Source: Bacillota bacterium (GTDB taxonomy: Bacteria; Bacillota; Clostridia; Christensenellales; CAG-138). From it: DNA of 64,000 nucleotides. The DNA lies in assembly GCA_023390655.1 (NCBI GenBank), contig JAEWCL010000020.1, forward strand, positions 3,275 through 67,274. The letters run 5' to 3'. Below are positions 32,848-50,069 of this stretch, in pieces. The translations under genes and the position numbers were made by a program. Under the pieces are notes generated by a model. The model was not told the DNA's origin. It did not search any database and worked only from the letters and a program-made list of their open reading frames with translations. Numbering within the stretch: the stretch's first letter is position 1; each line of letters starts with the position of its first letter.

Positions 32848-32939
32848 TGGCGGAGAAGGAGGGATTTGAACCCTCGCGCCAGTTACCCCAGCCTACTCCC
32901 TTAGCAGGGGAGCCCCTTGAGCCACTTGGGTACTTCTCC
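32848..32939 (-). tRNA. tRNA-Ser (anticodon GCT), with long variable arm and encoded CCA
   Basis: The reverse complement folds as a cloverleaf: acceptor GGAGAAG/CTTCTCC, anticodon stem CTCCC/GGGAG with loop CTGCTAA, and T-arm GAGGG-TTCAAAT-CCCTC. Confidence 0.93.
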
Positions 32940-32961
32940 AGGCCTATAAAATTGTGGCGAT

Positions 32962-33050
32962 TGGCGGAGAGAGAGGGATTCGAACCCCCGGTGCCTTGCG
33001 GCATCACTGGTTTTCAAGACCAGCTCCATAAACCACTCGGACATCTCTCC
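32962..33050 (-). tRNA. tRNA-Ser (anticodon TGA), with long variable arm and encoded CCA
   Basis: Reverse complement: acceptor GGAGAGA/TCTCTCC, anticodon stem CTGGT/ACCAG with loop CTTGAAA, and T-loop TTCGAAT. Confidence 0.93.
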
Positions 33051-34573: not shown

Positions 34574-35452
34574 ATGGCTATCTTTGAAGGCTCCGGCGTT
34601 GCCATCATTACCCCATTCCACGGGAATGGAATTGATTTTGGTGTATTTGAAAAATTGATTGAGCGTCAGATAAAAGGCAAAACGAATGCAATCATCGTTT
34701 GTGGGACCACGGGCGAGGCGTCCACTATGAGCGCGGAAGAGAAGCGCGCTGCGATCGAGTTTTGCGTCAAACAGGTCAACGGTCGCGTGCCGGTGATTGC
34801 GGGTACGGGCGGCAACAATACGGCAAACGTGGTGCGGGACAGTAAGGCCGCGGAAGAGCTTGGCGCGGACGGCCTCCTGATTGTAACGCCGTACTACAAC
34901 AAAACCACGCAGGCGGGGCTTGTCGCGCACTACGCGGCGGTTGCAGAAGCCGTCTCACTTCCTATTATTGTTTATAATGTGCCCGGCCGTACAGGCTTAA
35001 ATGTGCTGCCTGCGACGATGAAGCAGCTGATGGCATACAAGAACATCGTTGCCATTAAGGAGGCAAGCGGGAACATTGAGCAGATCGTAAACCTGGCCGC
35101 CCTATGTCCGGCGCTTGACATCTATTCCGGCAATGATGACCATGTGCTGCCGCTGCTCGCGCTTGGCGCAAAGGGCGTGATCTCCACCATCGCAAACGTC
35201 ATCCCGGAAGACATGCACGAGCTGTGCGCCGCGTTCTTCCGCGGGGATGTGGAAGCTTCGCGCGCGCTGCAGTTCAAGGTTCTTTCCATCTGGAAGGCGG
35301 CATTTTGCGAGGTGAACCCCATTCCCATAAAGACCATGTGCGCGATGCTTGGCTGGTGTGAGGGGACGTTACGGCTCCCGCTTTGCCCGCCCAGCGAGAC
35401 AAACCGCGCGGCAATGGAAACTGCGCTCAAAGAATACGGATTGCTTTCTTAA
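34574..35452 (+). CDS. dapA: 4-hydroxy-tetrahydrodipicolinate synthase
   Basis: GSGVAIITPF, VCGTTGEASTMS, TPYYNK and AIKEASGN (Schiff-base Lys). Start at ATG 34574, behind AAAGGAGGGG. Confidence 0.92.
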   Translation: MAIFEGSGVAIITPFHGNGIDFGVFEKLIERQIKGKTNAIIVCGTTGEASTMSAEEKRAAIEFCVKQVNGRVPVIAGTGGNNTANVVRDSKAAEELGADGLLIVTPYYNKTTQAGLVAHYAAVAEAVSLPIIVYNVPGRTGLNVLPATMKQLMAYKNIVAIKEASGNIEQIVNLAALCPALDIYSGNDDHVLPLLALGAKGVISTIANVIPEDMHELCAAFFRGDVEASRALQFKVLSIWKAAFCEVNPIPIKTMCAMLGWCEGTLRLPLCPPSETNRAAMETALKEYGLLS

Positions 35453-35486
35453 AGAATATCAGCGAAAGCAGGCAACAGGTGAAACT

Positions 35487-36710
35487 ATGATTAAGGTGAT
35501 CATCAACGGCGCATGCGGCCAAATGGGCCGCACCATCATGCGTCTTTGCAAGCAACATAACAACGATTTCCAGGTGGTTGCGGGGGTGGCGACCTATCAG
35601 TGCCCGGAGGCGGAGGGCGTCCCCATCGTCAACGATATTATGAAGGCGCCCGAAGGCGCCGATGTGGTGATCGATTTCTCACGCCCCGCAGCGCTTCCCA
35701 GGCTTGTGCAGTATTGCCAGACTAATAAAATGCGCCTGATTATCGGCACCACGGGCTTGAGCGAGAACGACAGGCTCTCCTTGGAGCGGGCGTCCGCGAA
35801 AATCCCCATATTCTTAAGCGGCAACATGTCGCTTGGCGTCAACCTGCAGATTGAGCTGATTAAAAAAGCCGCTGCGGCGCTTGGCGACGCATACGACATT
35901 GAAATTATCGAAAAGCATCATAACCTCAAGGTGGATGCGCCCAGCGGTACGGCCCTGATGCTGGCGGACGCTGTGAGCACGCAGTTCCCCTCCGGCAAGG
36001 AATATGTGTTTGGCCGCCATACGAAGGACGTCAGGCGCGCCAAAAAAGAAATCGGCCTGCATTCCATCCGCGGCGGTACGGTGGTAGGGGAGCATGAGGT
36101 GGAATTCCTCGGTCAGGATGAAATCGTCACCATTTCCCACAAGGCGTATTCCAAGCAAGTGTTTGGCATTGGCGCGCTGCGCGCTGCACAGTACCTCATG
36201 CACAAGCAGCCTGGCCTCTACGACATGCACGATATCGTGACCGAGAAGGACGTACTTTCCCACCTGTATACGGATGACGATCAGGCGGTGATTACCGTAA
36301 GTTCCCTTCCCAACGAGCCGGGCGTATTAAGCCATATTTTCGGCACCATTGCGCGCAGCAATGTATTTGTGGATATGATCAGCGTTACCGTGCCGGGTTC
36401 TGTCTCCGCCAGCGTCAGCTTTTCGTTGCCGAAATCCCAGCTGGCGACCGCCATCAATGCGCTTAAAACCCTGCGGCCGCTCTATATGGGGATGGATATC
36501 CACGCGCTCGACAACATCACGAAACTGACGGTAGAAGGCCCCGGCATGGCGGTGCGCCATGGCGTTGCAGGGCAGCTCTTCACAGTGCTTTCAGAAGCGA
36601 ATGTCAGCATTGAGCTTGTGACGACCAGTGAAACCAAGATCGCCTGCTGCATCCGGAACAGCGATGTTTCCACAGCGCTTGCGGTGATCGCAAAGCAGTT
36701 TGAGCTGTAA
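35487..36710 (+). CDS. dapB: 4-hydroxy-tetrahydrodipicolinate reductase fused to two C-terminal aspartokinase-type ACT domains (407 aa)
   Basis: DapB motifs: INGACGQMGR and EIIEKHHNLKVDAPSGTA. C-terminal about 140 aa: SSLPNEPGVLSHIFGTIARSNVFVDMIS ... VEGPGMAVRHGVAGQLFTVLSEANVSIELVTTSETKIACCI. Confidence 0.85.
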   Translation: MIKVIINGACGQMGRTIMRLCKQHNNDFQVVAGVATYQCPEAEGVPIVNDIMKAPEGADVVIDFSRPAALPRLVQYCQTNKMRLIIGTTGLSENDRLSLERASAKIPIFLSGNMSLGVNLQIELIKKAAAALGDAYDIEIIEKHHNLKVDAPSGTALMLADAVSTQFPSGKEYVFGRHTKDVRRAKKEIGLHSIRGGTVVGEHEVEFLGQDEIVTISHKAYSKQVFGIGALRAAQYLMHKQPGLYDMHDIVTEKDVLSHLYTDDDQAVITVSSLPNEPGVLSHIFGTIARSNVFVDMISVTVPGSVSASVSFSLPKSQLATAINALKTLRPLYMGMDIHALDNITKLTVEGPGMAVRHGVAGQLFTVLSEANVSIELVTTSETKIACCIRNSDVSTALAVIAKQFEL

Positions 36711-39940: not shown

Positions 39941-40357
39941 TCAATCGCTGCAACATTTGCCGCGGGCATAACGCACCAGCCGGTCATTGAGATTGCCGGT
40001 GTGCAGCTCAAAAAGGTGATTGTCATAATCATAAAAATACAGGGAACTGCCTTCGCCGTCTATCCGGGGACGGTCCTGCCGGATGGTTAACCCGAGCCGG
40101 TGGATTTTTTCGCGGTATGCGTCCAGCTGTTCGGGCTGAATTTGAAAGGCAATGTGGTTATAGGTTTCTATGGGTAACGGCGGGCCTTCCATAATGCAGA
40201 ACCATATGCCGCAGATCAGAAAAAACTTTTCGCGGCTGATAGAAAATGGTACATCACCGCTTGCGTAGACCTCCTGCGCCCCAAACAGGTCTTCGTATAG
40301 CGCACCGGTACGGTCAATATCCTTGACGATGCGCGTGATATGGCTAAGTCCCAGCAT
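39941..40357 (-). CDS. fosX: Fosfomycin resistance protein, FosX-type (VOC/glyoxalase-fold metalloenzyme)
   Basis: Near full-length pattern match to FosX as recalled: LSHITRIVKDI, SREKFFLICGIWFCIMEG, TYNHIAFQI, RPRIDGEGSSLYFYDYDNHLFELHTG and LNDRL. Confidence 0.8.
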   Translation of the reverse strand: MLGLSHITRIVKDIDRTGALYEDLFGAQEVYASGDVPFSISREKFFLICGIWFCIMEGPPLPIETYNHIAFQIQPEQLDAYREKIHRLGLTIRQDRPRIDGEGSSLYFYDYDNHLFELHTGNLNDRLVRYARGKCCSD

Positions 40358-40420
40358 AACGCCCCTCCTTTTTTATTGAGTATAGCATGGCGATGCGCCT
40401 GTGGCTGTAAACAATCGGCC

Positions 40421-40456
40421 ACAAAAAAGGCAGCTGCCGGAGCAGCTGCCCTTTTA
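40421..40456. terminator. Bidirectional terminator ending the UbiD/UbiX operon
   Basis: 9-bp stem GGCAGCTGC / GCAGCTGCC with a 4-nt loop. The minus strand is followed by TTTTTTGT. Confidence 0.8.
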
Positions 40457-40469
40457 TCATGGATTACAA

Positions 40470-41339
40470 TCAGTTGCGGGAAGAAAGGTACAACAGCACC
40501 TGCGGCAATGCCTGCAACAGCCAATAGGTATAGCGTTCCGGGTGCTGTCTTACGTCCTGCATCAGGGCTTCGGGTTCCACCCAGCGGATCTCCTCCACTT
40601 CCTCCGGGCAGAACGTGACCGGGCCGTCATACCTGCCGATCATCACGTGATCAAGCTCGTTTTCCGTCAACCCGTTTTCAAACGCTTTTTCATACCGGAA
40701 GTGAAAGAGTTCCTCAATCGGCGCATGAAACCCCATTTCTTCCATCAGCCTGCGGGAGGCCGCATCGGCAAGCTGTTCGCCCCATGCGGGATGACTGCAG
40801 CAGGTATTGCTCCATAGGCCGCCCGAATGGTACTTTTCCGCATGCCGCTTTTGCAGCAGCAACCTGCCTTGGCTGTTGAATATGAATATGGAGAACGCGC
40901 GGTGCAGCCTGCCCTCCTGATGGGCCTGCAGCTTTAAAATGGGACGTATAGCTTGATCCGCCTCATCCACTTCCACGATGTACGCTTGCAGCAGATGCGT
41001 TACATGCGCGCCGACAAGTTCCCGTACCGCTTCGATTTCCTCAGGCGTGATGCGGTCCACATGAATGCCCGCGGCGACGGACACATGCTTTTGCAGCCGT
41101 TCGCACAACACATTTGATACATATTCCGCCACATCGCTGTCCTTATGCCCGGTTCGGTTGAAGGTGGAGGTCGTGGCGCGCGGGCTCTCGCCGTCCAGAA
41201 GGCTGGGGCGGGGAACGCTGAACGTTACGCAGCCGATGTGCGCATCGCCGCCCGAAAGCGAGACTATAAGATCTTCTCCCATTGGGATGGCGATCAAACG
41301 GATATGGATGCGCCCGCGCGAAAGCGTCTGTTCGTACAC
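40470..41339 (-). CDS. Fusion protein: LpdD-like (UbiD-decarboxylase accessory / prenylated-flavin chaperone family) N-terminal domain plus type-1 isopentenyl-diphosphate delta-isomerase (Nudix fold)
   Basis: GTG start 8 nt after AAAGGAG. N-terminal motifs: SGGDAHIGCVT, TGHKDSDV and AAGIHVDRIT. C-terminal motifs: LHRAFSIFIFNSQGRLLLQKR, WSNTCCSHP (catalytic Cys) and LTENELDHV (catalytic Glu). Confidence 0.75.
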   Translation of the reverse strand: MYEQTLSRGRIHIRLIAIPMGEDLIVSLSGGDAHIGCVTFSVPRPSLLDGESPRATTSTFNRTGHKDSDVAEYVSNVLCERLQKHVSVAAGIHVDRITPEEIEAVRELVGAHVTHLLQAYIVEVDEADQAIRPILKLQAHQEGRLHRAFSIFIFNSQGRLLLQKRHAEKYHSGGLWSNTCCSHPAWGEQLADAASRRLMEEMGFHAPIEELFHFRYEKAFENGLTENELDHVMIGRYDGPVTFCPEEVEEIRWVEPEALMQDVRQHPERYTYWLLQALPQVLLYLSSRN

Positions 41340-41370
41340 GTTCCCAGCTCCTTTCTTATGGCGAGGGTGA

Positions 41371-41973
41371 TTATGGCGTAGGCTCCATCCAGCGCTTCAA
41401 GCCTTGGTAAGAAACGCCGAATTGATCGAGTATTTTGCCTACCAGGTGCGCATTGAGCTCCTCAAGCGTCTTTGGCCTGTGGTAATAGGATACCATGGGC
41501 GGCAGAATCATTGCACCCATTTCGCTCAGCGAGAGCATATTGCGCAGGTGGATGGTGCTAAGCGGCGTTTCCCTTGCAACCAGCACAAGCTTGCGGCGCT
41601 CTTTTAAAATGACGTCAGCCGCCCGCAGGATCAGATTGTCCGAATAGCCGCATGCAATGCCCGCGACGGTTTTCATGCTGCAGGGAACGATGAGCATGCC
41701 TTCCGTACGGAAGGTGCCGCTTGCGATGCTCGCACCGATGTTCGAAAGCGCGTGCACCTGATCGGCAAGGGCATATACCTGCTCGGGCGTGTAGTCCGTC
41801 TCCTGCGCGATGGTCAGCTCCGCGCCCTTTGAAATGACAAGGTGCGTTTCAAATGCGCCGGTCTCCTTGAGCGCCTTTAGCACCTCAATCCCAAGCAAAG
41901 CGCCGCTGGAGCCTGTCATGGCGACAATCAGCCGTTTGCGGAACGTATCGGCAACATGGGGCATATCCTTCAT
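41371..41973 (-). CDS. ubiX: Flavin prenyltransferase UbiX (prFMN synthase)
   Basis: RLIVAMTGSSGALLGIEVLKAL, LIVPCSMKTVAGIACGYSDNLILRAADV and KERRKLVLVARETPL. Start set to ATG 41973, 8 nt after GAGGA. ATG 41982 and ATG 41964 are alternatives. Confidence 0.88.
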   Translation of the reverse strand: MKDMPHVADTFRKRLIVAMTGSSGALLGIEVLKALKETGAFETHLVISKGAELTIAQETDYTPEQVYALADQVHALSNIGASIASGTFRTEGMLIVPCSMKTVAGIACGYSDNLILRAADVILKERRKLVLVARETPLSTIHLRNMLSLSEMGAMILPPMVSYYHRPKTLEELNAHLVGKILDQFGVSYQGLKRWMEPTP

Positions 41974-41984
41974 TCCTTCCATCC

Positions 41985-42704
41985 TCAGCTGATGTAGGTG
42001 ACCCACAGATAGGAAATCGGCATCACAATCACCAACGCCGGCAGCATATTTGCAATCGCAAACGATTTGATACCGCTGATGCGGAGGCCCGTTGCCAGCA
42101 TGATCATGCCGCCGCAAGCGGTAAAGTCCGCGATCATGGCTTCGTTTGTCAACGGCAGGATGAATGTGGCGCTGAAGAACAGTGCCAGCAGCACCACAAC
42201 CTGGGGCACGCAGATGGCCATGACGAGATACCCAAGGGATGCCGCAAATATGGCGGAAGTGAAGAAGTCCAGTATGGATTTTGTCAGCAGTACGGAATGA
42301 TCCCCGGTCATCCCTTCCTTGAGCGCGCCGAAGATACCCGTGCCGCTGGCGCAGAACAGGATCAGGATGCCTACGAACTTCTCCATGAACTCCGCCTGGC
42401 TCTGATTGCTGCTGCCGCCGGAAAAGAGCTTTTCTACCGGGCCTTTTGCCTTAATGGCGACGGTTTCAATGCCTTTTTCCAGGCGGATGAGCTCACCAAT
42501 CGCCGTACCGACGATGAGAGAGAGCACCACTGCGGGCAGCGTGTGCATCTTGACGATGTAGTTGATGCCCATGGACATGGAAGCGGCGCCAAACACAAGG
42601 GGCAGGGAGGTGCGTAAGCGTTCAGGAATCTTTTTTCCCAGCAGCGCCCCCAAAAGTCCTCCAAACAGAACAGCAAGGCTGTTTACGATAACGCCAATCG
42701 GCAT
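41985..42704 (-). CDS. DUF554-family integral membrane protein (paralog 2), embedded in the UbiD/UbiX operon
   Basis: MPIGVIVNSLAVLFGGLLGALLGKKIPERL... with the same architecture as 15251-15937. RBS AGAGGGGG. 20-nt gap after ubiD. Confidence 0.8.
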   Translation of the reverse strand: MPIGVIVNSLAVLFGGLLGALLGKKIPERLRTSLPLVFGAASMSMGINYIVKMHTLPAVVLSLIVGTAIGELIRLEKGIETVAIKAKGPVEKLFSGGSSNQSQAEFMEKFVGILILFCASGTGIFGALKEGMTGDHSVLLTKSILDFFTSAIFAASLGYLVMAICVPQVVVLLALFFSATFILPLTNEAMIADFTACGGMIMLATGLRISGIKSFAIANMLPALVIVMPISYLWVTYIS

Positions 42705-42724
42705 AACAAGATACCCCCTCTTCT

Positions 42725-44206
42725 TTAGTTGAACAGCTCAGGTGCAAAACGGGCGGGATCAAGCTCCATAAACTTGGAGCGCTGGAATTTTTCCTTGAGC
42801 GCATATGGCACGGTGCAGTCGAAAATCACCTTGCAGGAAATGCCGCGGTCCCGGATCATGGGATTATAGGCGGTGTTCTCCGAAGGATCGAGCGGATGGC
42901 ACCTGACGCCGGGAATGAATATGGTATCGATATCCCCCTGGTAACGGGTGTTGAGCGCCCACATGACGTCGTTGCTGTCAAACGGGTCCACGTCCTCATC
43001 GACGAGGATGACATGCTTGAGCTCTGAAAACGCGGAGAACGCAAGCAACGCTGCCTGCCTCTGGCGGCCTTCGTCGCTGGGCTGGCTCTTTTTAAACTGC
43101 AGCACGGCCATATATTTGCCGCCGCCCGAAGCGTGCGCATAGACGTTTACCAGCCTGCCGGGCATGGCCTTTTCCACCATCTGCAGAATGCTCGCTTCCG
43201 TGGGAATGCCCGCCATGTTGACATGTTCCTCGCTGGGCCCGATGCACGTCTGCAAAATGGGATTCTTGCGGTGGGTGACCGCCTTTACCTTGATGATAGG
43301 CAGCTCGGGATATGCGCCGCCGGTATAGCCGGGGAATTCCGGCATGGCCTTGCCGGTGTTGGTGTTGATATCCTCGCGGATGCGCTTGTTGGGCAACAGC
43401 TCGCCTTCAATGACATATTCCGCGTTGGCGATTGCCTTTTCCCCAACGGTGATGCAATTGACAAGTTCCACGGGCGCTTTTCTGATTGCACCCGCGATGC
43501 TCAGCTCGTTATAGCCAAGCGGCGTTGTCGGGGGTTCAAAGCATGCGCCGATCTCGATAGCGGGGTCCACGCCGATGCTGATGGAAATGGGCAGCGGCTT
43601 GCCGGCGGCCTCCGCCTTTGCGCGGAATACTTCAAGATGCCGCGCGCCGGGGACGAAGTACATGGAGATTTCATCCTTGCTCTGCAGGCAGAGACGGTGG
43701 ATGGTGATATCGGATTCGCCCGTCTCCGGGTCGGAAGCGTAGCACATGCCCATCGTGATGTAGGGGCCTGCGTCCTCTTCCGTATTGGTGGGTGCGGGAA
43801 CAAGCTTTCTTACATCAAAGCCCGGTTCATCCGCACGGTATACAACTTCCTGGCAGGCGGCTTTTTCATTGGAGACCACCACGGGCGCAACGGGGCTTTT
43901 GACAGCTTCGTTGAGCAGGAACCCAAGCTTTTCCGGCTCTGCGCCAAGCATCAGCGCAACGCGCTTGCGGCTGGCGAGAAGGCCGATGATGACTTTTGCG
44001 TCCGGATGCCCTTTGACGTTGTTGAAGAGCATTGCGGGACCAATGCGCGTGGGACGCTTAACCGTGCCGCCGGCACCGACATACCGGTAAACGCCGGAGA
44101 TTTCCGCATGGGGATCCGCAGGTTCGTTCGTCTCGTACAGCTCTCCGGGGATGCTTCTGAGAAGCTCCAACGCGGAACGCAAGCTGTCGATTTTCTGTTC
44201 TGACAT
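42725..44206 (-). CDS. UbiD-family prFMN-dependent (de)carboxylase, AroY/LpdC-like (phenolic-acid decarboxylase subgroup)
   Basis: ISGVYRYVGAGGTVKRPTRIGPAMLFNNVKG, DAGPYITMGM, GKAMPEFPGYTG, IGPSEEHVNMAGIPTEASI and ILVDEDVDPFD. RBS AGGAGGAA. Confidence 0.88.
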   Translation of the reverse strand: MSEQKIDSLRSALELLRSIPGELYETNEPADPHAEISGVYRYVGAGGTVKRPTRIGPAMLFNNVKGHPDAKVIIGLLASRKRVALMLGAEPEKLGFLLNEAVKSPVAPVVVSNEKAACQEVVYRADEPGFDVRKLVPAPTNTEEDAGPYITMGMCYASDPETGESDITIHRLCLQSKDEISMYFVPGARHLEVFRAKAEAAGKPLPISISIGVDPAIEIGACFEPPTTPLGYNELSIAGAIRKAPVELVNCITVGEKAIANAEYVIEGELLPNKRIREDINTNTGKAMPEFPGYTGGAYPELPIIKVKAVTHRKNPILQTCIGPSEEHVNMAGIPTEASILQMVEKAMPGRLVNVYAHASGGGKYMAVLQFKKSQPSDEGRQRQAALLAFSAFSELKHVILVDEDVDPFDSNDVMWALNTRYQGDIDTIFIPGVRCHPLDPSENTAYNPMIRDRGISCKVIFDCTVPYALKEKFQRSKFMELDPARFAPELFN

Positions 44207-44263
44207 ACTGATTTCCTCCTATACAGATTTGTACGCGCCACAGTGCGCCTTGCTATGGCATGT

Positions 44264-44294
44264 AGTGTAAGATGTATAGTAGAAATACAGTCAA
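44264..44294 (-). promoter_or_regulatory. MerR-type promoter (19-bp spacer with internal dyad) upstream of ubiD
   Basis: Minus strand: TTGACT (44294-44289), 19-bp spacer GTATTTCTACTATACATCT containing the dyad TGTAT-N7-ATACA, then TACACT (44269-44264). Confidence 0.6.
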
Positions 44295-44367
44295 GCATTT
44301 TTCTGAAAAAAAGGAGATGCATAAAAAAAGCCTGTCATTACGGCGGGCAGTCAGAGGTTTTTTGCGG

Positions 44368-45195
44368 CTATTCCCTTGATACAGGCACCTGTATCCGGCA
44401 AAAATCCGCGTTAACCGCTGGGGTGTGAAATGTTGTGTCCAAGATGCATTCATCCAGTATGGGGCCGGTTACCGTATACTGGTTGTCCCTGATCCAACAA
44501 AGTAGGTCGCGTAAAATCTGTGTGGAATACGGCATGGCGTATTTATAAAGGCAGATATAATCCCCACCCTTTAAAAACACCGTGTTCTCGGATTTAAACG
44601 CATCCTCTTCCGGGATAAACATAAAGATGCCGGCGTCATGGAGCATACGCTCCGCCTCTTCATCATAACTGCGGATAAACGTGCCAAAGCCCGCAGCGGG
44701 GAGCAGGTTATGGCTGTTCAGGATATTCCACGCCTGCATCATCGTCAGGTGCAGCCTGGGCCGGTCTACTGTGCCTCCAAACGGCACAAATACCGCGTGG
44801 CGGTCCGGAAATCTCTGCAAGAAGGGCTTGTTTGTTTCATCCCGGTAGGTCTCGGCGTTTTCATAATTGGTCAGGCGGCGCTCGATGTACTTTTTTTGTT
44901 TGGTCAGCGCGCGGATTTGCGCATCGATTTGCACATGGTGGTATTTGAGAAGCTCCGTGGTGGACGGCAGGTTCCGGTCCTTAAGGTTTGCTTTGATACG
45001 TTCAAGGTCCACGCCGATGGATTTTAAAAAGCAGATTTCCCGCAGATATGGAATTTGGTATACGCTGTAGTACCGGTAGCCGTTCTCATCAATATGGTGC
45101 GGCTTAAACAAACCGATCTTGTCATAGTAGATCAGTGTTTGCCTGCTGATATTATGGATGCTTGCCATTACGCTGATTTGCAGATATTCATTCAT
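44368..45195 (-). CDS. MerR-family transcriptional regulator with a C-terminal GyrI-like effector-binding domain (BmrR-like architecture)
   Basis: N-terminal HTH: ISVMASIHNISRQTLIYYDKIGLFKPHHIDENGYRYYSVYQI. Coiled-coil segment, then a C-terminal about 150-aa ligand-binding-type domain. Start moved to ATG 45195. Confidence 0.82.
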   Translation of the reverse strand: MNEYLQISVMASIHNISRQTLIYYDKIGLFKPHHIDENGYRYYSVYQIPYLREICFLKSIGVDLERIKANLKDRNLPSTTELLKYHHVQIDAQIRALTKQKKYIERRLTNYENAETYRDETNKPFLQRFPDRHAVFVPFGGTVDRPRLHLTMMQAWNILNSHNLLPAAGFGTFIRSYDEEAERMLHDAGIFMFIPEEDAFKSENTVFLKGGDYICLYKYAMPYSTQILRDLLCWIRDNQYTVTGPILDECILDTTFHTPAVNADFCRIQVPVSRE

Positions 45196-45365
45196 AGCAA
45201 TTCCGGCTTTCCTGTGATGGTAAGAACGGCGGATGATAGATTGTTCAGTATCGTAACACAGGGCCTGATAAAATTCAACTGCGGGTATTGCAAAAAAAGA
45301 CAAGTATCGCGAAAAGGCAATGCAGAGGATTGTTAGAATGGCATGGAAACGGTAGTTCGGATATC

Positions 45366-45397
45366 AAAAAGCGGCGGAACGAGTTCCGCCGCTTTTT
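45366..45397. terminator. Bidirectional terminator after cysS
   Basis: AAAAAGCGGCGGAA-CGAG-TTCCGCCGCTTTTT. Confidence 0.85.
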
Positions 45398-45403
45398 GTA
45401 AAC

Positions 45404-46792
45404 TTAAAGTTTTTTCAGCTTGGGGCCTTGCTTGGTATCCTCCACCGCATAGCCCATGGCCTTTAAGGTATCGCGGATTGCGTCCGAGCGCGCCCAGTCC
45501 TTGGCGGCGCGGGCGGCCTGGCGCTGCTCAAGTAGCGTAAGCGTTTCTTCCGGGAATTCTTCTTCTTTCTTCTGTGTCAGGAGCCCCAGCACGCCGGTAA
45601 GCTCGATCAACTGCTTTCTTGCCGTTTCCACCGCGTCCTTGCCGCGGGGTTCCGTCACAAACGTGTTGCAGGCGCGTACCATCTCAAAGAGTACGCCAAG
45701 CGCGTCGGCGGTGTTGAGATCGTCGTCCATCGCGGCGCAGAATGCGTCCTTATAGCCCGCAAGCTCTTTGAGGAAGGCCGCGTCTTCAGCGGTTTCCGGG
45801 CCAAACTGCGCCTCTTCAAGCCGTTCCTTTGCGGTCCTTAGGCGCGTGAGCGCCGCGGTCGCCTGCTCGATCAATTCACGGGAGAAGTTGACGGGCGTGC
45901 GGTACTGGGCGCTGAGCATAAACAGGCGCACCGCCTCCAGGTCAAACTCTTGAGAAATATCGCGCACGGTAAAGAAGTTGTTGAGGCTCTTGGACATCTT
46001 CTGGTTGTTGACGTTGATGTAGCCGTTGTGCATCCAGAAGTTTGCAAAGGGCTTGCCCGTTGCGGCCTCGCTCTGTGCGATCTCGTTTTCGTGGTGCGGG
46101 AACACAAGATCCTGCCCGCCGCCATGGATATCAAACGTCTCGCCGAGGATGGTCATGCTCATGGCGGAGCACTCAATATGCCAGCCGGGGCGGCCCATAC
46201 CCCACGGGCTTTCCCACGCGGGCTCATTCGGCTTCTGCGCTTTCCAGAGCGCAAAATCCAAAGGATCGCGCTTCTGCTCGGTGGGGTCGATGCGCGCGCC
46301 GCTTTCAAGATCGTCGACGCTCTGGCCGGAAAGCTTGCCGTATTCCGGGTAGCTGCGGACGCTGAAGTAAACGTCGCCCTCTTCGGTTGCGTAGGCGTGA
46401 CCCTTTTTGATAAGCGTTTCCACCAGTTTGATGATTTCCGCAATGTGCTCGGTCGCGCGGGGGTTGACGTCCGCCCGACCAATACCAAGCGCGTCCGCGT
46501 CCTGATAATATTCCTTGATGAACCGTTCGGCCAGTTCCTTGACGGTGATGCCCTCCTCGTTGGCGCGGCGGATCATTTTATCATCGATATCCGTAAAGTT
46601 TTGTACAAACGTCACCTGATAGCCGCTGTACTTTAAATACCTGCGCAGCGTATCGAATACGATAAACGGGCGCGCGTTGCCGATGTGGAAAAAGTTATAC
46701 ACCGTAGGCCCGCATGCATACATGCTGATGCGCCCGGGGATTACCGGCACAAGCTCTTCTTTTTTACGGGTCATGGTGTTGTAAATCTGCAT
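45404..46792 (-). CDS. cysS: Cysteinyl-tRNA synthetase
   Basis: [20 protein letters not shown] (HIGH motif), KMSKSLNNF (KMSKS motif) and Zn-ligand context [19 protein letters not shown]. Confidence 0.93.
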
Positions 46793-46917
46793 GATTGCCT
46801 CCTTCTAAACCGCCCGCGTCTATGCGGGTGCGATACGCAAAAAAGACACTGCCCCTCCACCCCAGGGCGCACACCCTGTCTGGAGCGGCCTTGCCTCTCA
46901 TTTCCAACTTACTTCCT

Positions 46918-46947
46918 ATAGTAGAGTATGGCGCGCGCGCTTGTCAA
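46918..46947 (-). promoter_or_regulatory. Sigma-A promoter of cysS
   Basis: Minus strand: TTGACA (46947-46942), 18-bp spacer, TACTAT (46923-46918). Confidence 0.55.
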
Positions 46948-46959
46948 GTGCGGCAAGGG

Positions 46960-47904
46960 TTACGGCATGCGCCGGATGTTTTCATCCGTAAACCCCCAGC
47001 TCATGATCTGAATCTTTCCCCAAAGCTCGTTCAAGAACATCCATGGCTGGTCCGTATACGGCGGACGGAGGATGTGGACCTGCTGTGCGGGCATATTGCT
47101 TTGCGCGAGCAGTAAGGCCTTTTCTCCAAGCCCGTTTTCGCACACATCGATCACAATAATGCAGTGCCCCGGGCTGCCGGAATAAATCAGAATATCGCCC
47201 GGCTGTATATCCTGCCGGGGAATGACGGTACTTTCCGGATACAGCGAGCGGGTGCTGGCGTAGTTGAAGAGCTTCTGCATATAGGCGTAGAATGCTTCAT
47301 AGCTTTCATCCGGCTGCGCCTTCTTTACCATGCGCGTGGTGTTGCCGTCTACTTCCAGCCGGTAGCCTTCCCGCCACTTGCTGTACGGGAATTCATCCCC
47401 GTTGGTCAGGTGGTAATTGATCTTTTCATACTCCCCGATGGAATAGAGATATTCGCACCGCAAACGCAGTGCCGCATCCGCGCACTGCTGCAAATCCCTG
47501 TCTCCAACGCTTAAAGAAAGCACTGCCGCGTGCCAGCCTTGAATGAAGGCTTTCTCGCCATTGTACAATAGAACCGGGCTGCCGTCGGGCAGTAACTTCT
47601 GATCGCGCAGGAATTCCCCGTAGCCATCGGCCTGCTTGCGTTCATACCCCTGCGGCGGACGGAACCGCGTGCGTATCGTATCCCCCTCGGCATCGAGAAC
47701 GGTGTACGGGGTGGAGGTGGGCGTTGCGGGAACGGGGGAAGGAGAAGGCGATGCTTCTTCCGTGGGTGCGCCTGACGTGGAACTGGGGGGCGTGCTGTTT
47801 GGCATGCAGCCGGATAATAACACAAAAAAGAGCGCGGCAGATACCAATGCGTAGTTGCCGCGCCGATATAAGGCGGTATTTGCTTTTTCAGTGTGCTTGC
47901 ACAT
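46960..47904 (-). CDS. Putative lipoprotein of unknown function (possibly DUF4846-like)
   Basis: Signal sequence and lipobox LLSGCMP. Ser/Pro/Thr-rich linker. Globular C-terminal domain. The family assignment is from memory only. Confidence 0.55.
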   Translation of the reverse strand: MCKHTEKANTALYRRGNYALVSAALFFVLLSGCMPNSTPPSSTSGAPTEEASPSPSPVPATPTSTPYTVLDAEGDTIRTRFRPPQGYERKQADGYGEFLRDQKLLPDGSPVLLYNGEKAFIQGWHAAVLSLSVGDRDLQQCADAALRLRCEYLYSIGEYEKINYHLTNGDEFPYSKWREGYRLEVDGNTTRMVKKAQPDESYEAFYAYMQKLFNYASTRSLYPESTVIPRQDIQPGDILIYSGSPGHCIIVIDVCENGLGEKALLLAQSNMPAQQVHILRPPYTDQPWMFLNELWGKIQIMSWGFTDENIRRMP

Positions 47905-47987
47905 TGCTCGTTAAGCCTGTCCCCCGTGAAATGCAGGTGTATTTGCTAATCATCATATCACGGGGAAGGATGAATAAACTGGAAATT

Positions 47988-48629
47988 TTATGTGGGCTGT
48001 ATCCGGCGTACAGGGTGCCGCAGCACGGTCATCAGATTCTCCGGCCTGGTCTTCAATGGATCCTTCAAGTAAATTTCATGATGACGGCGCGTTTCATTGG
48101 TATCATCCAAATAGCCGTTTTCCTCCATGAAGCGCTGCATGCGTGAAAGCGTCCCCGGCTCTTCATCGTAGGGGCCGATATGCATGCACTGCACGCACAG
48201 CCCTTCTTCAAATGGCACGAGTCTTGCTTTTGCGGTATCGATGCCCTTTTTGCGCGCCACCTCCCCGCATGCCCAGCGGAAAATTTCCTGCGTAATAAAC
48301 TCCGGCTGCCGCAGCATGGAACAGAAGCAAAGCTTGTCTTTCTTGAGAACATCGTATGTTCCGCCGTCGGAGAACCACCACAACCCTTCTAGCGGCGGTA
48401 CGGTATATGCAAAATACCCGTCCACCTCGCTTCCGGCCTTGCTCATTTTAATGGTATAGGCAAGCGAATACAGCAGCCCCACGCTTTTTTCATATTCCCC
48501 GCCCGGCGTGTTCGGGTTGCCGCAGCCTTCCACCATCAAAAACTGCATGGGCGGCACCTCAATTGCTGCAGGCTCCGCCTTGGGTAAATACAAATCTTTG
48601 TACGCCTTTTTGTAATCCAGTTTTTCCAT
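47988..48629 (-). CDS. GyrI-like small-molecule-binding domain protein (213 aa)
   Basis: MEKLDYKKAYKDLYLPKAEPAAIEVPPMQFLMVEGCGNPN ... VPPLEGLWW. Start moved to ATG 48629, behind AAGGAGG. Confidence 0.78.
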   Translation of the reverse strand: MEKLDYKKAYKDLYLPKAEPAAIEVPPMQFLMVEGCGNPNTPGGEYEKSVGLLYSLAYTIKMSKAGSEVDGYFAYTVPPLEGLWWFSDGGTYDVLKKDKLCFCSMLRQPEFITQEIFRWACGEVARKKGIDTAKARLVPFEEGLCVQCMHIGPYDEEPGTLSRMQRFMEENGYLDDTNETRRHHEIYLKDPLKTRPENLMTVLRHPVRRIQPT

Positions 48630-48640
48630 CCCTGCCTCCT

Positions 48641-49096
48641 TTAGCGCAATGCAATATAGATATGGATTTCGCGCGGTTCCCCCTCGGGTGCGGGAAAATA
48701 CTCTTCGAAATCGCCCGTATAGGCCCGGTCGAGCGGCATGTTCCAGATTTCTCCCCATAGCTTGCCCACGGTATCCACATCATCCCCAATGGCGGTGAAT
48801 TGCGCATAGCGCCCTGCCGGGATCATGGCCGCAACCATGTCCTGCGGCAGGAGTGAAGCTTCCCCCACCTCGCAGCCGACGGTGACGTCATACTCCGTGC
48901 CGTCCGGGGAATAGCCGGAGTACAGGCCGATGGAATGGTCGTTTGTTTTTCCGGGGATGCGCGAAAACATGCCCCCCGAGAATAACGTCTGCCACAGTCC
49001 GCCGATGATGTGCTGCATCTGCGGGTCCAGATTGGAGGTTCTTGCCTGAACGCCGAAGATGGTCTTCCTTTGCAATGTTACGATTTCATACTGCAT
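48641..49096 (-). CDS. GyrI-like / AraC-effector-binding-domain protein (151 aa)
   Basis: MQYEIVTLQRKTIFGVQARTSN ... IPAGRYAQFTAIGD ... GDFEEY. Start moved to ATG 49096, behind AAGAGG. Confidence 0.72.
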   Translation of the reverse strand: MQYEIVTLQRKTIFGVQARTSNLDPQMQHIIGGLWQTLFSGGMFSRIPGKTNDHSIGLYSGYSPDGTEYDVTVGCEVGEASLLPQDMVAAMIPAGRYAQFTAIGDDVDTVGKLWGEIWNMPLDRAYTGDFEEYFPAPEGEPREIHIYIALR

Positions 49097-49163
49097 ACCG
49101 GTATGCCTCTTTTCATCATATTTGGTATGCAAATCATAGCATGGGAATGTGGACAACAGCGTG

Positions 49164-50069
49164 TCATATTTGATACAGGCTGAGTGCATTTTTTAGCGCC
49201 GCAATCACTTCTTCCCGGATGTTCTCGGGGGAGAGCACCTCAAGATGCGCGCCGTAGGTCATCAGATATTCACTCAGCCACGCGTTGTGCGGCATGGAGA
49301 AGCGGACAAGGAAGCTGCCGTCTTCAAGCTGCTCGCACTGTTCGGGCGGGAATTCTTCCCGCACCCGGTATTCCATGCTCTTTGCAACGCGCGCCGTCAC
49401 CTCCACCATAGGGGCGGCGTAGTTGGCTGTGTTTGCCTCCAGGTCTGGAAGGGGCCTTCTTGTGAATGCTTCGGGCAGCAGGCTGACATCGCGCATGCGC
49501 AGCAGCTTGAAAAAGCGGAACTCCTCCCTTTTCCGGCAAAATGCTAAGAGGTACCAATCCCGCCCGCGGAAGATAAGCTTCATGGGTTCCACACTGCGCA
49601 TGGTCGCATCTCCGCGCATGCCGCTGTAATGAAAGCGGATGACGCGCTGCGTGAATATGGCGTTTTTGAGCTGGGAAAAGAGCGCGCTGACTTCCGTTTG
49701 GCCGCCCCACAGGGAAAAGTCCACTTCGATCCAGTCAAGCCCGTCTAAGCCAAACAGCGCCGAAAGCCTGTCGAGCACCGGCTTTGCAACCTCCGGCTGT
49801 ACGGCTTCCATGCCGCGCAAAGAGGAAAGCAGATTTTCCTGTTCCTCCGTATTGAGATAAGAGCGGTTGAACACAAAATTTTCCGTCAGGCGGATACCGC
49901 CGGATTGTCCCTTGATGGCGAATATGGGGATGCCCGCCTGTGCGAGCGTCTCCACATCCCGGTAAATGGTACGCTGTGAAACCTCAAAATGCGCGGCAAG
50001 CTCTTTTGCCGTCATGCTTTTGCGGTTGAGCAGCAGGTAGACAATTTCAAACAAGCGGTTGATTTGCAT
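49164..50069 (-). CDS. YafY-family transcriptional regulator (HTH plus WYL domain)
   Basis: MTAKELAAHFEVSQRTIYRDVETLAQAGIPIFAIKGQSGGIRL. The central segment RFHYSG...PMKLIFRGRDWYLLAFC contains the WYL motif. Confidence 0.85.
   Translation of the reverse strand: MQINRLFEIVYLLLNRKSMTAKELAAHFEVSQRTIYRDVETLAQAGIPIFAIKGQSGGIRLTENFVFNRSYLNTEEQENLLSSLRGMEAVQPEVAKPVLDRLSALFGLDGLDWIEVDFSLWGGQTEVSALFSQLKNAIFTQRVIRFHYSGMRGDATMRSVEPMKLIFRGRDWYLLAFCRKREEFRFFKLLRMRDVSLLPEAFTRRPLPDLEANTANYAAPMVEVTARVAKSMEYRVREEFPPEQCEQLEDGSFLVRFSMPHNAWLSEYLMTYGAHLEVLSPENIREEVIAALKNALSLYQI

Follow-up and report, generated by a model that had tools for sequence, protein, structure and literature searches.

A chaperone–isomerase fusion in a candidate protocatechuate/gallate decarboxylase cassette of an uncultured Bacillota bacterium

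The window, a 64,000-nucleotide stretch of DNA from an uncultured gut-type Bacillota bacterium, carries five minus-strand genes at 40470–45195, which an earlier note had read as a self-contained decarboxylase cassette dependent on prenylated flavin mononucleotide (prFMN). This observation is confirmed. All five open reading frames (ORFs) are present, and they encode, in the order of transcription, a MerR-family regulator, a UbiD-family decarboxylase, a DUF554 membrane protein, the flavin prenyltransferase UbiX and a fusion protein, LpdD::IDI, which joins a chaperone that binds the reduced cofactor (prFMNH2) to a type-1 isopentenyl-diphosphate isomerase (IDI). The bundling of a regulator, a prFMN decarboxylase, a membrane protein, a cofactor synthase, a chaperone and a prenyl-donor enzyme in one unit stands, and the layout recurs in other lineages.

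We consider the cassette a probable substrate-inducible module that would decarboxylate the plant phenolic acids protocatechuate and/or gallate non-oxidatively, giving catechol or pyrogallol, with a prFMN supply of its own. Behind this reading are the families of the gene products, the intact sites of the IDI and LpdD domains, the operon-like packing, a conserved promoter whose spacer has 19 nt and the recurring layout. The arrangement as a whole had been put forward as apparently undescribed, and this has to be narrowed: its core of decarboxylase, membrane protein, UbiX and LpdD is a known gallate decarboxylase type. The new part is the chaperone–isomerase fusion that this gallate/protocatechuate decarboxylase operon type has acquired. 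No description of an LpdD–IDI fusion or of the window's full layout was found in the searchable literature, most subscription journals being outside its coverage.

The LpdD::IDI fusion and its distribution

All cassette features given below lie on the minus strand. The fusion protein (40470–41339, 289 aa) starts with GTG and consists of an LpdD domain of aa 1–119 (40983–41339) and a Nudix-fold IDI domain of aa 120–289 (40470–40982). PF21758, which is called PAC_bac in the Pfam copy used here and LpdD_chaperone in newer Pfam, covers aa 8–119 (E 9.3e-31, 106.3 bits against a gathering score of 27), and the profile of the domain matches Lactiplantibacillus plantarum LpdD (8p4w) in the Protein Data Bank (PDB) with E 4.4e-12. 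H34, H65 and D67 of the fusion correspond to LpdD H35, H61 and D63, the metal and cofactor site of this prFMNH2 chaperone (Gahloth et al. 2024, PMC10865409). Across an alignment of 18 sequences, the two His residues do not vary, and the D67 position is either Asp or Glu.

The AlphaFold2 (AF2) model of the fusion is confident (pLDDT 95.6, pTM 0.87). Its LpdD half is a Pba3/4-like beta-sandwich that Foldseek superposes on 8p4w with a TM-score (TMt) of 0.74 and a root-mean-square deviation (rmsd) of 2.9 Å over 119 columns (E 1.2e-6). The N-terminal half is a genuine LpdD in its profile, its site residues and its predicted fold, so the case of an N-terminal domain unrelated to LpdD, which the earlier note had allowed for, does not arise. 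The characterised LpdD (8p4w, 8pzh, 8po5) shares the Pfam family, the His/His/Asp site and the predicted fold, but it is a stand-alone protein of about 124–140 aa, whereas the window version carries a C-terminal IDI of 170 aa. Neither a fusion nor an isomerase or a Nudix domain comes up in the LpdD paper (PMC10865409).

The IDI domain (aa 120–277) passes two equivalog cut-offs, PRK03759 (NF002995) with 152.8 bits against 127 and TIGR02150 with 112.8 against 105.8. It keeps the catalytic Cys67, Glu116 and Tyr104 of E. coli Idi as C181, E228 and Y216, the metal-binding His25, His32, His69, Glu114 and Glu116 as H140, H146, H183, E226 and E228, the diphosphate-binding Lys21, Arg51, Lys55 and Arg83 as K136, R165, K169 and R197, and further Glu87 and Trp161 as E201 and W273. 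By our own reading of the sequence, it has no canonical 23-residue Nudix box. In the AF2 model, this half matches E. coli IDI (1hx3/1nfs) with TMt 0.82 and rmsd 1.6–1.9 Å, and also human IDI.

By its sequence, the IDI half is thus an intact type-1 isomerase. It shares with E. coli Idi the equivalog cut-offs, the catalytic and metal residues and the fold, and differs in its N-terminal LpdD and in its location in a decarboxylase operon rather than an isoprenoid context. At the junction, helix 99–119 of the model passes straight into strand 120–124, and the two domains form a tight interface without a flexible linker. Both domains proposed from the letters for the last gene are therefore borne out by profile, residues and AF2/Foldseek.

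The fusion ORF is present in independent assemblies with 71–97% identity, so it is not an assembly artefact. In a census of 5.8 billion clustered proteins, the window-type fusion accounts for just three clusters, of 7, 4 and 1 members, when proteins are grouped at 90% identity. An exhaustive LpdD profile search, superseding a word-indexed search with the LpdD domain alone that gave 3 matches, found 1,734 clusters at 50% identity. The best 150 of these are nearly all stand-alone proteins of ~130 aa, and the exceptions are UbiX::LpdD fusions (P0132, 346 aa; P0363, 313 aa) and a second LpdD::IDI fusion (P0248). Used as a query, P0248 retrieved five more fusion clusters, 33–40% identical to it. 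Hence, the LpdD::IDI fusion is rare, occurring in a handful of protein clusters, and its family comprises at least three clades.

Clade A includes the window and the loci L001–L005, all carriers being uncultured Bacillota metagenome-assembled genomes. The comparative neighbourhood search proposed in the earlier note finds the order MerR, AroY-type UbiD, DUF554, UbiX and LpdD::IDI in L001–L004; L005 ends inside ubiX. The flanks differ among L001, L002 and the window locus.

Clade B (P0248, P0290, P0291) is 28–33% identical to the window fusion and lies in operons of another type, with VdcC, VdcD, a DASS-family permease, UbiX and LpdD::IDI. VdcC exceeds its curated cut-off of 650 in L043 (722 bits) and L045 (677 bits), both with VdcD, and a divergent LysR gene stands beside the L043 operon. 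The IDI of all three proteins has Ala at the Cys67 position and Cys one residue earlier, at position 66.

Two further features were seen in the P0248 lineage. A YhbP-family protein of 153 aa, which may be a further cofactor-handling accessory, is encoded between ubiX and lpdD::idi (L045 7543–8004, L046 2187–2648), its match of 138.9 bits being under the 176-bit cut-off. A 652-aa ORF (L045 5425–7383) combines the DASS permease with UbiX and may be a gene-calling merge.

Clade C comes from Fusibacter bizertensis (L041 8001–8870) and relatives (L042, L047). In all three assemblies the fusion has the same neighbours, standing behind a solute-binding protein and a dCache-GGDEF gene, and no UbiD or UbiX gene occurs in the flanking DNA of up to 8 kb.

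The unfused relatives were surveyed at 38 LpdD loci, a partial census drawn from species-representative genomes with a 7-sequence alignment and a single peptide pattern. The locus of Pseudobutyrivibrio ruminis (L033) comprises tannase B, a UbiD that is 64% identical to that of the window, DUF554 (50%), UbiX and LpdD. In a rumen actinobacterium, likewise uncultured (L035), tannase B is found with UbiD (67%), UbiX and LpdD, and the locus of Actinomyces glycerinitolerans (L032) comprises a MerR homologue (40%), UbiD (61%), a DASS permease, UbiX and LpdD. The DUF554 protein and the MerR regulator are thus not unique to the window type, being seen again in single related loci, L033 and L032, respectively. 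A separate IDI gene beside the unfused LpdD operons was also considered and rejected, as none lies within 10 kb of the loci examined.

Could the fusion be incidental, a housekeeping IDI joined to an adjacent lpdD by the loss of a stop codon and uncoupled from prFMN synthesis? The Fusibacter-type neighbourhoods and the lack of an IDI neighbour at the unfused loci agree with this, as does the NCBI name of P0292, simply isopentenyl-diphosphate Delta-isomerase. However, the join persists across clades only 28–43% identical to the window fusion, always in the order LpdD–IDI, with both halves under purifying selection and a linker-free, confidently modelled junction. Moreover, the fusion is the last gene of the operon, directly behind ubiX, in both the AroY-type and the VdcCD-type backgrounds. 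This terminal position in two unrelated backgrounds is the strongest argument for a functional join, and we regard an incidental one as very improbable.

The decarboxylase operon and its regulation

The UbiD protein (42725–44206, 493 aa) has the three UbiD domains in full length, PF20695 (E 6.8e-16), PF01977 (E 6.8e-53) and PF20696 (E 1.4e-31). Among the structures in the PDB, it is closest to AroY of Enterobacter cloacae (5ny5; E 3.7e-211, 705 bits), with 62% identity over 490 columns, which upholds the proposed AroY/LpdC-like assignment and places it in the AroY/LpdC/SgdC subfamily. It is 64% and 67% identical to the enzymes encoded directly behind subtype-B tannase genes in L033 and L035, respectively. 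It is about equally far from AroY (62%) and from the tannase-linked group (61–67%), which makes protocatechuate and gallate each a plausible substrate.

A hydroxyarylic acid decarboxylase of the VdcC/VdcD type is ruled out. The UbiD protein is just 32% identical to a VdcC-type enzyme and scores 485.3 bits with the NF041204 VdcC model, under the cut-off of 650, and the intergenic gaps of 20, 11 and 31 nt have no space for the 70-aa ORF of a VdcD small subunit. The earlier note had placed LpdD together with the small D subunit of the EcdBCD and ShdBCD systems, and this does not hold. The two families are unrelated: LpdD is PF21758 of ~130 aa, VdcD, EcdD and BsdD are PF26358 / NF041205 of ~70 aa, and LpdD and VdcD-type proteins co-occur in L043, L045 and L048.

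No tannase and no catechol or pyrogallol pathway genes lie near the cassette in the window. In lactic acid bacteria and Streptococcus gallolyticus, the system ends at pyrogallol or catechol and no further pathway follows (PMC4218992), so missing downstream genes are expected here as well. They could also be a sign of another job, such as the detoxification of another hydroxy- or hetero-aromatic acid or a reaction run in the carboxylation direction, and DUF554 might then serve in efflux or under stress, for example. UbiD enzymes work reversibly and on a broad range of substrates (PMC10865409), the regulator shows a likeness to BmrR, a multidrug sensor, and DUF554 is uncharacterised. Nevertheless, decarboxylation of protocatechuate and/or gallate is favoured by 62% identity to AroY, a protocatechuate decarboxylase of known structure, and by 64–67% identity to the tannase-linked enzymes, and another job seems quite improbable.

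UbiX (41371–41973, 200 aa) passes the curated NCBIfam cut-offs, so the gene is what it was proposed to be: PRK06029 (NF004685) gives 256 bits against 188 and TIGR00421 240.5 against 108.9, and the VdcB model gives 263 bits. We take the ATG at 41973 as its start; an alternative ATG is at 41964. The best PDB matches are UbiX of E. coli O157 (1sbz) and PAD1 of Aspergillus niger (6qlg).

UbiX enzymes differ in their prenyl donor, dimethylallyl phosphate (DMAP) or dimethylallyl diphosphate (DMAPP). The Pseudomonas aeruginosa enzyme is DMAP-specific because F181 blocks the beta-phosphate, those of A. niger (Q203) and E. coli K12 require DMAPP, and that of E. coli O157 (H164) uses either with a better yield on DMAPP (PMC6541611). 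At this beta-phosphate gate, the window enzyme has His176, aligned to O157 H164, A. niger Q203 and P. aeruginosa F181. Together with its closeness to the O157 and A. niger enzymes, His176 makes it plausible that the window UbiX is a DMAPP-capable subtype that would use the IDI product directly. The idea that a gate-position His is specific to the IDI-containing cassettes was rejected, since nearly all LpdD-linked UbiX proteins have His or Gln there.

The donor question bears also on the IDI domain, which might no longer be an IPP/DMAPP isomerase (IPP, isopentenyl diphosphate). It might instead convert isopentenyl phosphate to DMAP, hydrolyse DMAPP to DMAP like NudJ/NudF or present the donor to UbiX. 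IDI does belong to the Nudix fold, E. coli reportedly obtains the DMAP for UbiX from Nudix hydrolases or ThiM (PMC12359138), and the Ala at the Cys67 position in clade B, with Cys one residue earlier, hints at changed chemistry there. Yet the window protein keeps every isomerase residue, including Cys67, Glu116, Tyr104, Trp161 and the diphosphate-binding Lys/Arg, passes both equivalog cut-offs and lacks the canonical Nudix box. With a DMAPP-capable UbiX, moreover, DMAP is not obviously needed. Such altered chemistry is improbable, and IPP to DMAPP isomerisation is the preferred assignment.

The DUF554 protein (41985–42704, 239 aa) matches PF04474 with E 1.1e-65 (221.7 bits against 25.1) and has 6–7 hydrophobic segments. 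Its amino acid identity across the lineages is 94–97% and its third codon positions there are only 60–71% identical, which makes it as constrained as the UbiD enzyme. A DUF554 protein occupies the same operon slot in P. ruminis L033, and a DASS permease fills the slot between the decarboxylase and ubiX in L032, L043, L045 and L048. From this unrelated permease at a fixed operon position, DUF554 is probably a carrier of the aromatic acid or of the phenol product.

All six cassette segments, with the fusion counted as two, are under purifying selection. Protein identities between the window and L001, L002 and L004 are 93–97% for UbiD and DUF554, 83–86% for UbiX, 75–82% for MerR, 72–79% for the LpdD domain and 71–74% for the IDI domain, while third-position identity is similar across the cassette at 44–71%. 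Recent transfer as the cause of the high UbiD and DUF554 identity was rejected for these three loci: with third codon positions at 60–71%, the identity reflects constraint.

The comparison with L003 differs. Window 40419–46956 and L003 4399–10917, each comprising cysS and the cassette, are 92.4% identical in DNA and their flanks only 77–84%; ubiD is 97% identical, with third positions at 92%. This suggests, for the L003 comparison only, that the cysS–cassette block was recently recombined or transferred between two related species.

As had been described, the genes behind the promoter are packed with very short gaps, measured as 20, 11 (with the ubiX ATG at 41973) and 31 nt, and the operon is closed by a strong intrinsic terminator. 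The terminator hairpin, noted before at 40421–40456 and placed here at 40423–40455 by folding, has a 14-bp GC-rich stem followed by T6. Its energy is −24.6 kcal/mol with a z of −4.56, and none of 200 shuffles folds as well.

The regulator gene merR (44368–45195, 275 aa) lies downstream of the cysS terminator (45366–45397). It has its own sigma-70-like promoter, TTGAAT-17 nt-TACGAT with TGT upstream (45250–45278), assigned by eye. Behind it, the 161-nt intergenic region contains a hairpin with a T7 run (44323–44357) and then the promoter of ubiD. In the window the merR hairpin is weak (−6 kcal/mol, z 0.25) and would be a leaky terminator at best; L001 and L002 have strong GC-rich hairpins with a T-run behind at the matching position.

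On the basis of this promoter-like site and 3′ hairpin, we read merR as a separate transcription unit and ubiD, the DUF554 gene, ubiX and lpdD::idi as the operon proper. The earlier picture of a five-gene cassette with its own regulator is thus kept in its bundling and revised in its transcription, merR forming a putative unit upstream of a four-gene operon.

The ubiD promoter, TTGACT-19 nt-TACACT (44264–44294), has in its spacer the inverted repeat TGTAT-N7-ATACA (44273–44289), the presumed operator. A dyad enclosed in a spacer of 19 nt is the characteristic mark of MerR-type activation. The window, L001 and L002, three lineages with a protein identity of only 71–95%, have the same promoter block, save one central base in L001. 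Such invariance across diverged lineages is good evidence of a real regulatory site, and it supports the MerR-type promoter that had been proposed upstream of ubiD.

A consensus promoter scan gave no useful sites, the merR promoter-like site not being among its output, and is uninformative because its spacer limit of 16–18 nt excludes MerR-type promoters. The 5′ leader up to the ubiD start codon (44204–44248, from alignment columns) is conserved too. It contains the element GCGCAnnGTGGCGCG (44234–44248), between the promoter and the ribosome-binding site, and then the ribosome-binding site ACAAATCTGTATAGGAGG. Searched against Rfam, the leader matches no family at or near the gathering score, so a riboswitch or another known RNA is not supported.

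The regulator consists of an N-terminal helix-turn-helix (HTH), a coiled coil and a C-terminal effector domain of 165 aa. The MerR HTH is clear (PF00376, E 1.8e-11, 44.1 bits against 28.2; PF13411, E 2.7e-10, 40.7 against 21.6). Its C-terminus had been called GyrI-like as a thing seen directly, and that label is weakly supported: aa 112–275 have zero Pfam matches even at E ≤ 10, an hhalign comparison with the GyrI-like protein encoded elsewhere in the window has a probability of 2%, and the single-sequence AF2 model (pLDDT 38) is unusable. The only positive sign is the family profile, co-linear with BmrR over residues 3–248 against 4–253.

A full-length homologue, 40% identical, stands ahead of the AroY-like operon in A. 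glycerinitolerans L032. With the BmrR-type MerR activators, the regulator shares the HTH, the length (275 vs 278 aa), the co-linear profile up to residue 248 and the 19-nt-spacer promoter with an internal dyad. It differs from them in a C-terminal domain that matches no Pfam GyrI-like model and in its target, a decarboxylase operon instead of an efflux pump.

Proposed mechanism

In the mechanism that we propose, the MerR protein would bind the TGTAT-N7-ATACA dyad in the over-long spacer and, with a phenolic effector, bring the −35 and −10 elements into register in the manner of MerR/BmrR-type activators. The DUF554 protein would bring the aromatic acid in or let the phenol product out. The IDI domain would convert IPP, the main IspH product, to DMAPP, and UbiX would combine DMAPP or DMAP with FMNH2 to yield prFMNH2.

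The LpdD domain, rigidly joined to IDI, would then capture the oxygen-labile prFMNH2 and deliver it to apo-UbiD. After the cofactor has matured to its active iminium form, the AroY/LpdC-type UbiD would decarboxylate the substrate. Through the fusion, the donor-supplying and the hand-over activity would always be expressed together at 1:1, and both may be kept beside UbiX. The UbiX and LpdD steps are drawn by analogy with the published biochemistry of their homologues, and the coupling through the fusion is what we infer.

Several points weigh against this scheme. Since prFMN is a cofactor and not consumed, the demand for DMAPP is small and a dedicated IDI has no obvious selective advantage; a local donor supply or a complex with UbiX would be an attractive account of it. 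The gate His of UbiX is compatible with DMAPP use as permissive and not specific evidence. Clade C lacks the UbiD and UbiX neighbours, and with no IDI gene near the unfused LpdD loci, it is the fusion itself that links LpdD to IDI.

The other points concern the operon and its substrate. The UbiD protein is equidistant from both reference groups, so its sequence cannot choose between protocatechuate and gallate. The literature on DUF554, YqgA and YdfK yielded no functional study and no characterised member. The effector domain of the regulator is the one without a Pfam match, and it is by their spacing that the four genes are taken as putatively co-transcribed.

A stronger version of the scheme makes LpdD::IDI the scaffold of a prFMN factory. 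The rigidly joined fusion would dock on UbiX, IPP would be isomerised beside the prenyltransferase and the DMAPP used on the spot, prFMNH2 would go straight to the LpdD site and from there to apo-UbiD, and donor supply, not only chaperoning, would limit UbiD activation. We offer this tentatively, as a possibility on the doubtful side. A bolder variant of it would have the proton-transfer chemistry of IDI act also on the prenyl-derived ring of the cofactor.

Neighbouring genes, known systems and implications

Directly downstream of the cassette and beyond its terminator is a FosX-like VOC/glyoxalase gene (39941–40357, minus strand; FosX model 184 bits vs 170) with its own promoter-like site (40379–40411). 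Homologues with 67–69% identity stand behind the cassette also in L002 (5229–5636), L004 (11005–11400) and L005 (1430–1825). In L003, the closest relative, the gene is missing and an ABC-F gene comes directly behind the cassette. The FosX-like gene may be a sixth, loosely linked member of the cassette, or else its position is a matter of plain synteny.

Upstream, the minus-strand region 46960–50069 encodes a DUF4846 protein (46960–47904), a stand-alone GyrI-like small-molecule-binding protein (47988–48758) and a WYL/HTH regulator (49164–50069), part of the region having homologues near the cassette in L003 and L004. Elsewhere in the window, an unusual plus-strand ORF behind asd and dapA (35349–36710) joins dihydrodipicolinate reductase (DapB, with both its N and its C domain) to a C-terminal pair of ACT domains, and two adjacent tRNA-Ser genes with anticodons GCT and TGA lie at 32848–33050 on the minus strand.

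Among the known systems, LpdBCD of L. plantarum and SgdCBD of S. gallolyticus share with the cassette an AroY-like UbiD (C), UbiX (B) and the PF21758 LpdD (D). SgdCBD shares the C-B-D gene order as well, and relatives of the window UbiD are found behind subtype-B tannase (L033, L035) as sgdCBD is near tanB (PMC4218992). In L. plantarum, lpdC and lpdBD are >1 Mb apart (PMC4218992). The window differs from both in the fusion of LpdD to a type-1 IDI, in DUF554 between C and B, in the MerR-family regulator and in having no tannase nearby.

The AroY enzymes of E. cloacae and Klebsiella pneumoniae (5ny5, 5o3n, 5o3m) share 62% full-length identity and the three-domain UbiD. They are usually assisted by EcdB/KpdB (UbiX) and a small EcdD/KpdD protein, and we know of no LpdD, IDI or DUF554 partner for them.

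The VdcBCD, BsdBCD, EcdBCD and ShdBCD systems likewise have a prFMN-dependent UbiD and UbiX in one operon, and the clade B fusions are in such operons. The window differs in its UbiD, 32% identical to VdcC and under the VdcC cut-off, and in having no 70-aa Zn-ribbon VdcD. The phenazine-1-carboxylate decarboxylase PhdABC shares the plan of UbiD, UbiX and a third, cofactor-activating protein in one operon, but PhdC is an oxidative maturase of the flavin-reductase fold unrelated to LpdD, and the system has no prenyl-donor enzyme (PMC13040415).

UbiD/prFMN enzymes are wanted for reversible (de)carboxylation and CO2 fixation, and many resist activation outside their hosts. Their helper proteins are recent finds, LpdD dating from 2024 and PhdC from 2025. 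The compact four-gene cassette is a candidate portable activation kit. If the fusion did act as the scaffold of a prFMN factory, the addition of lpdD::idi alone could be enough to activate UbiD enzymes that have so far been refractory in heterologous hosts.

As a 'Rosetta stone' link, the fusion argues for a coupling of donor supply to cofactor hand-over in vivo, and it favours DMAPP over DMAP as the donor that matters to UbiX enzymes of this class. The DUF554 family gains a concrete candidate role as an aromatic-acid or phenol carrier. In the gut Bacillota, the regulator and its promoter are a candidate MerR-type sensor system for phenolic acids, which bears on the metabolism of tannins and polyphenols.

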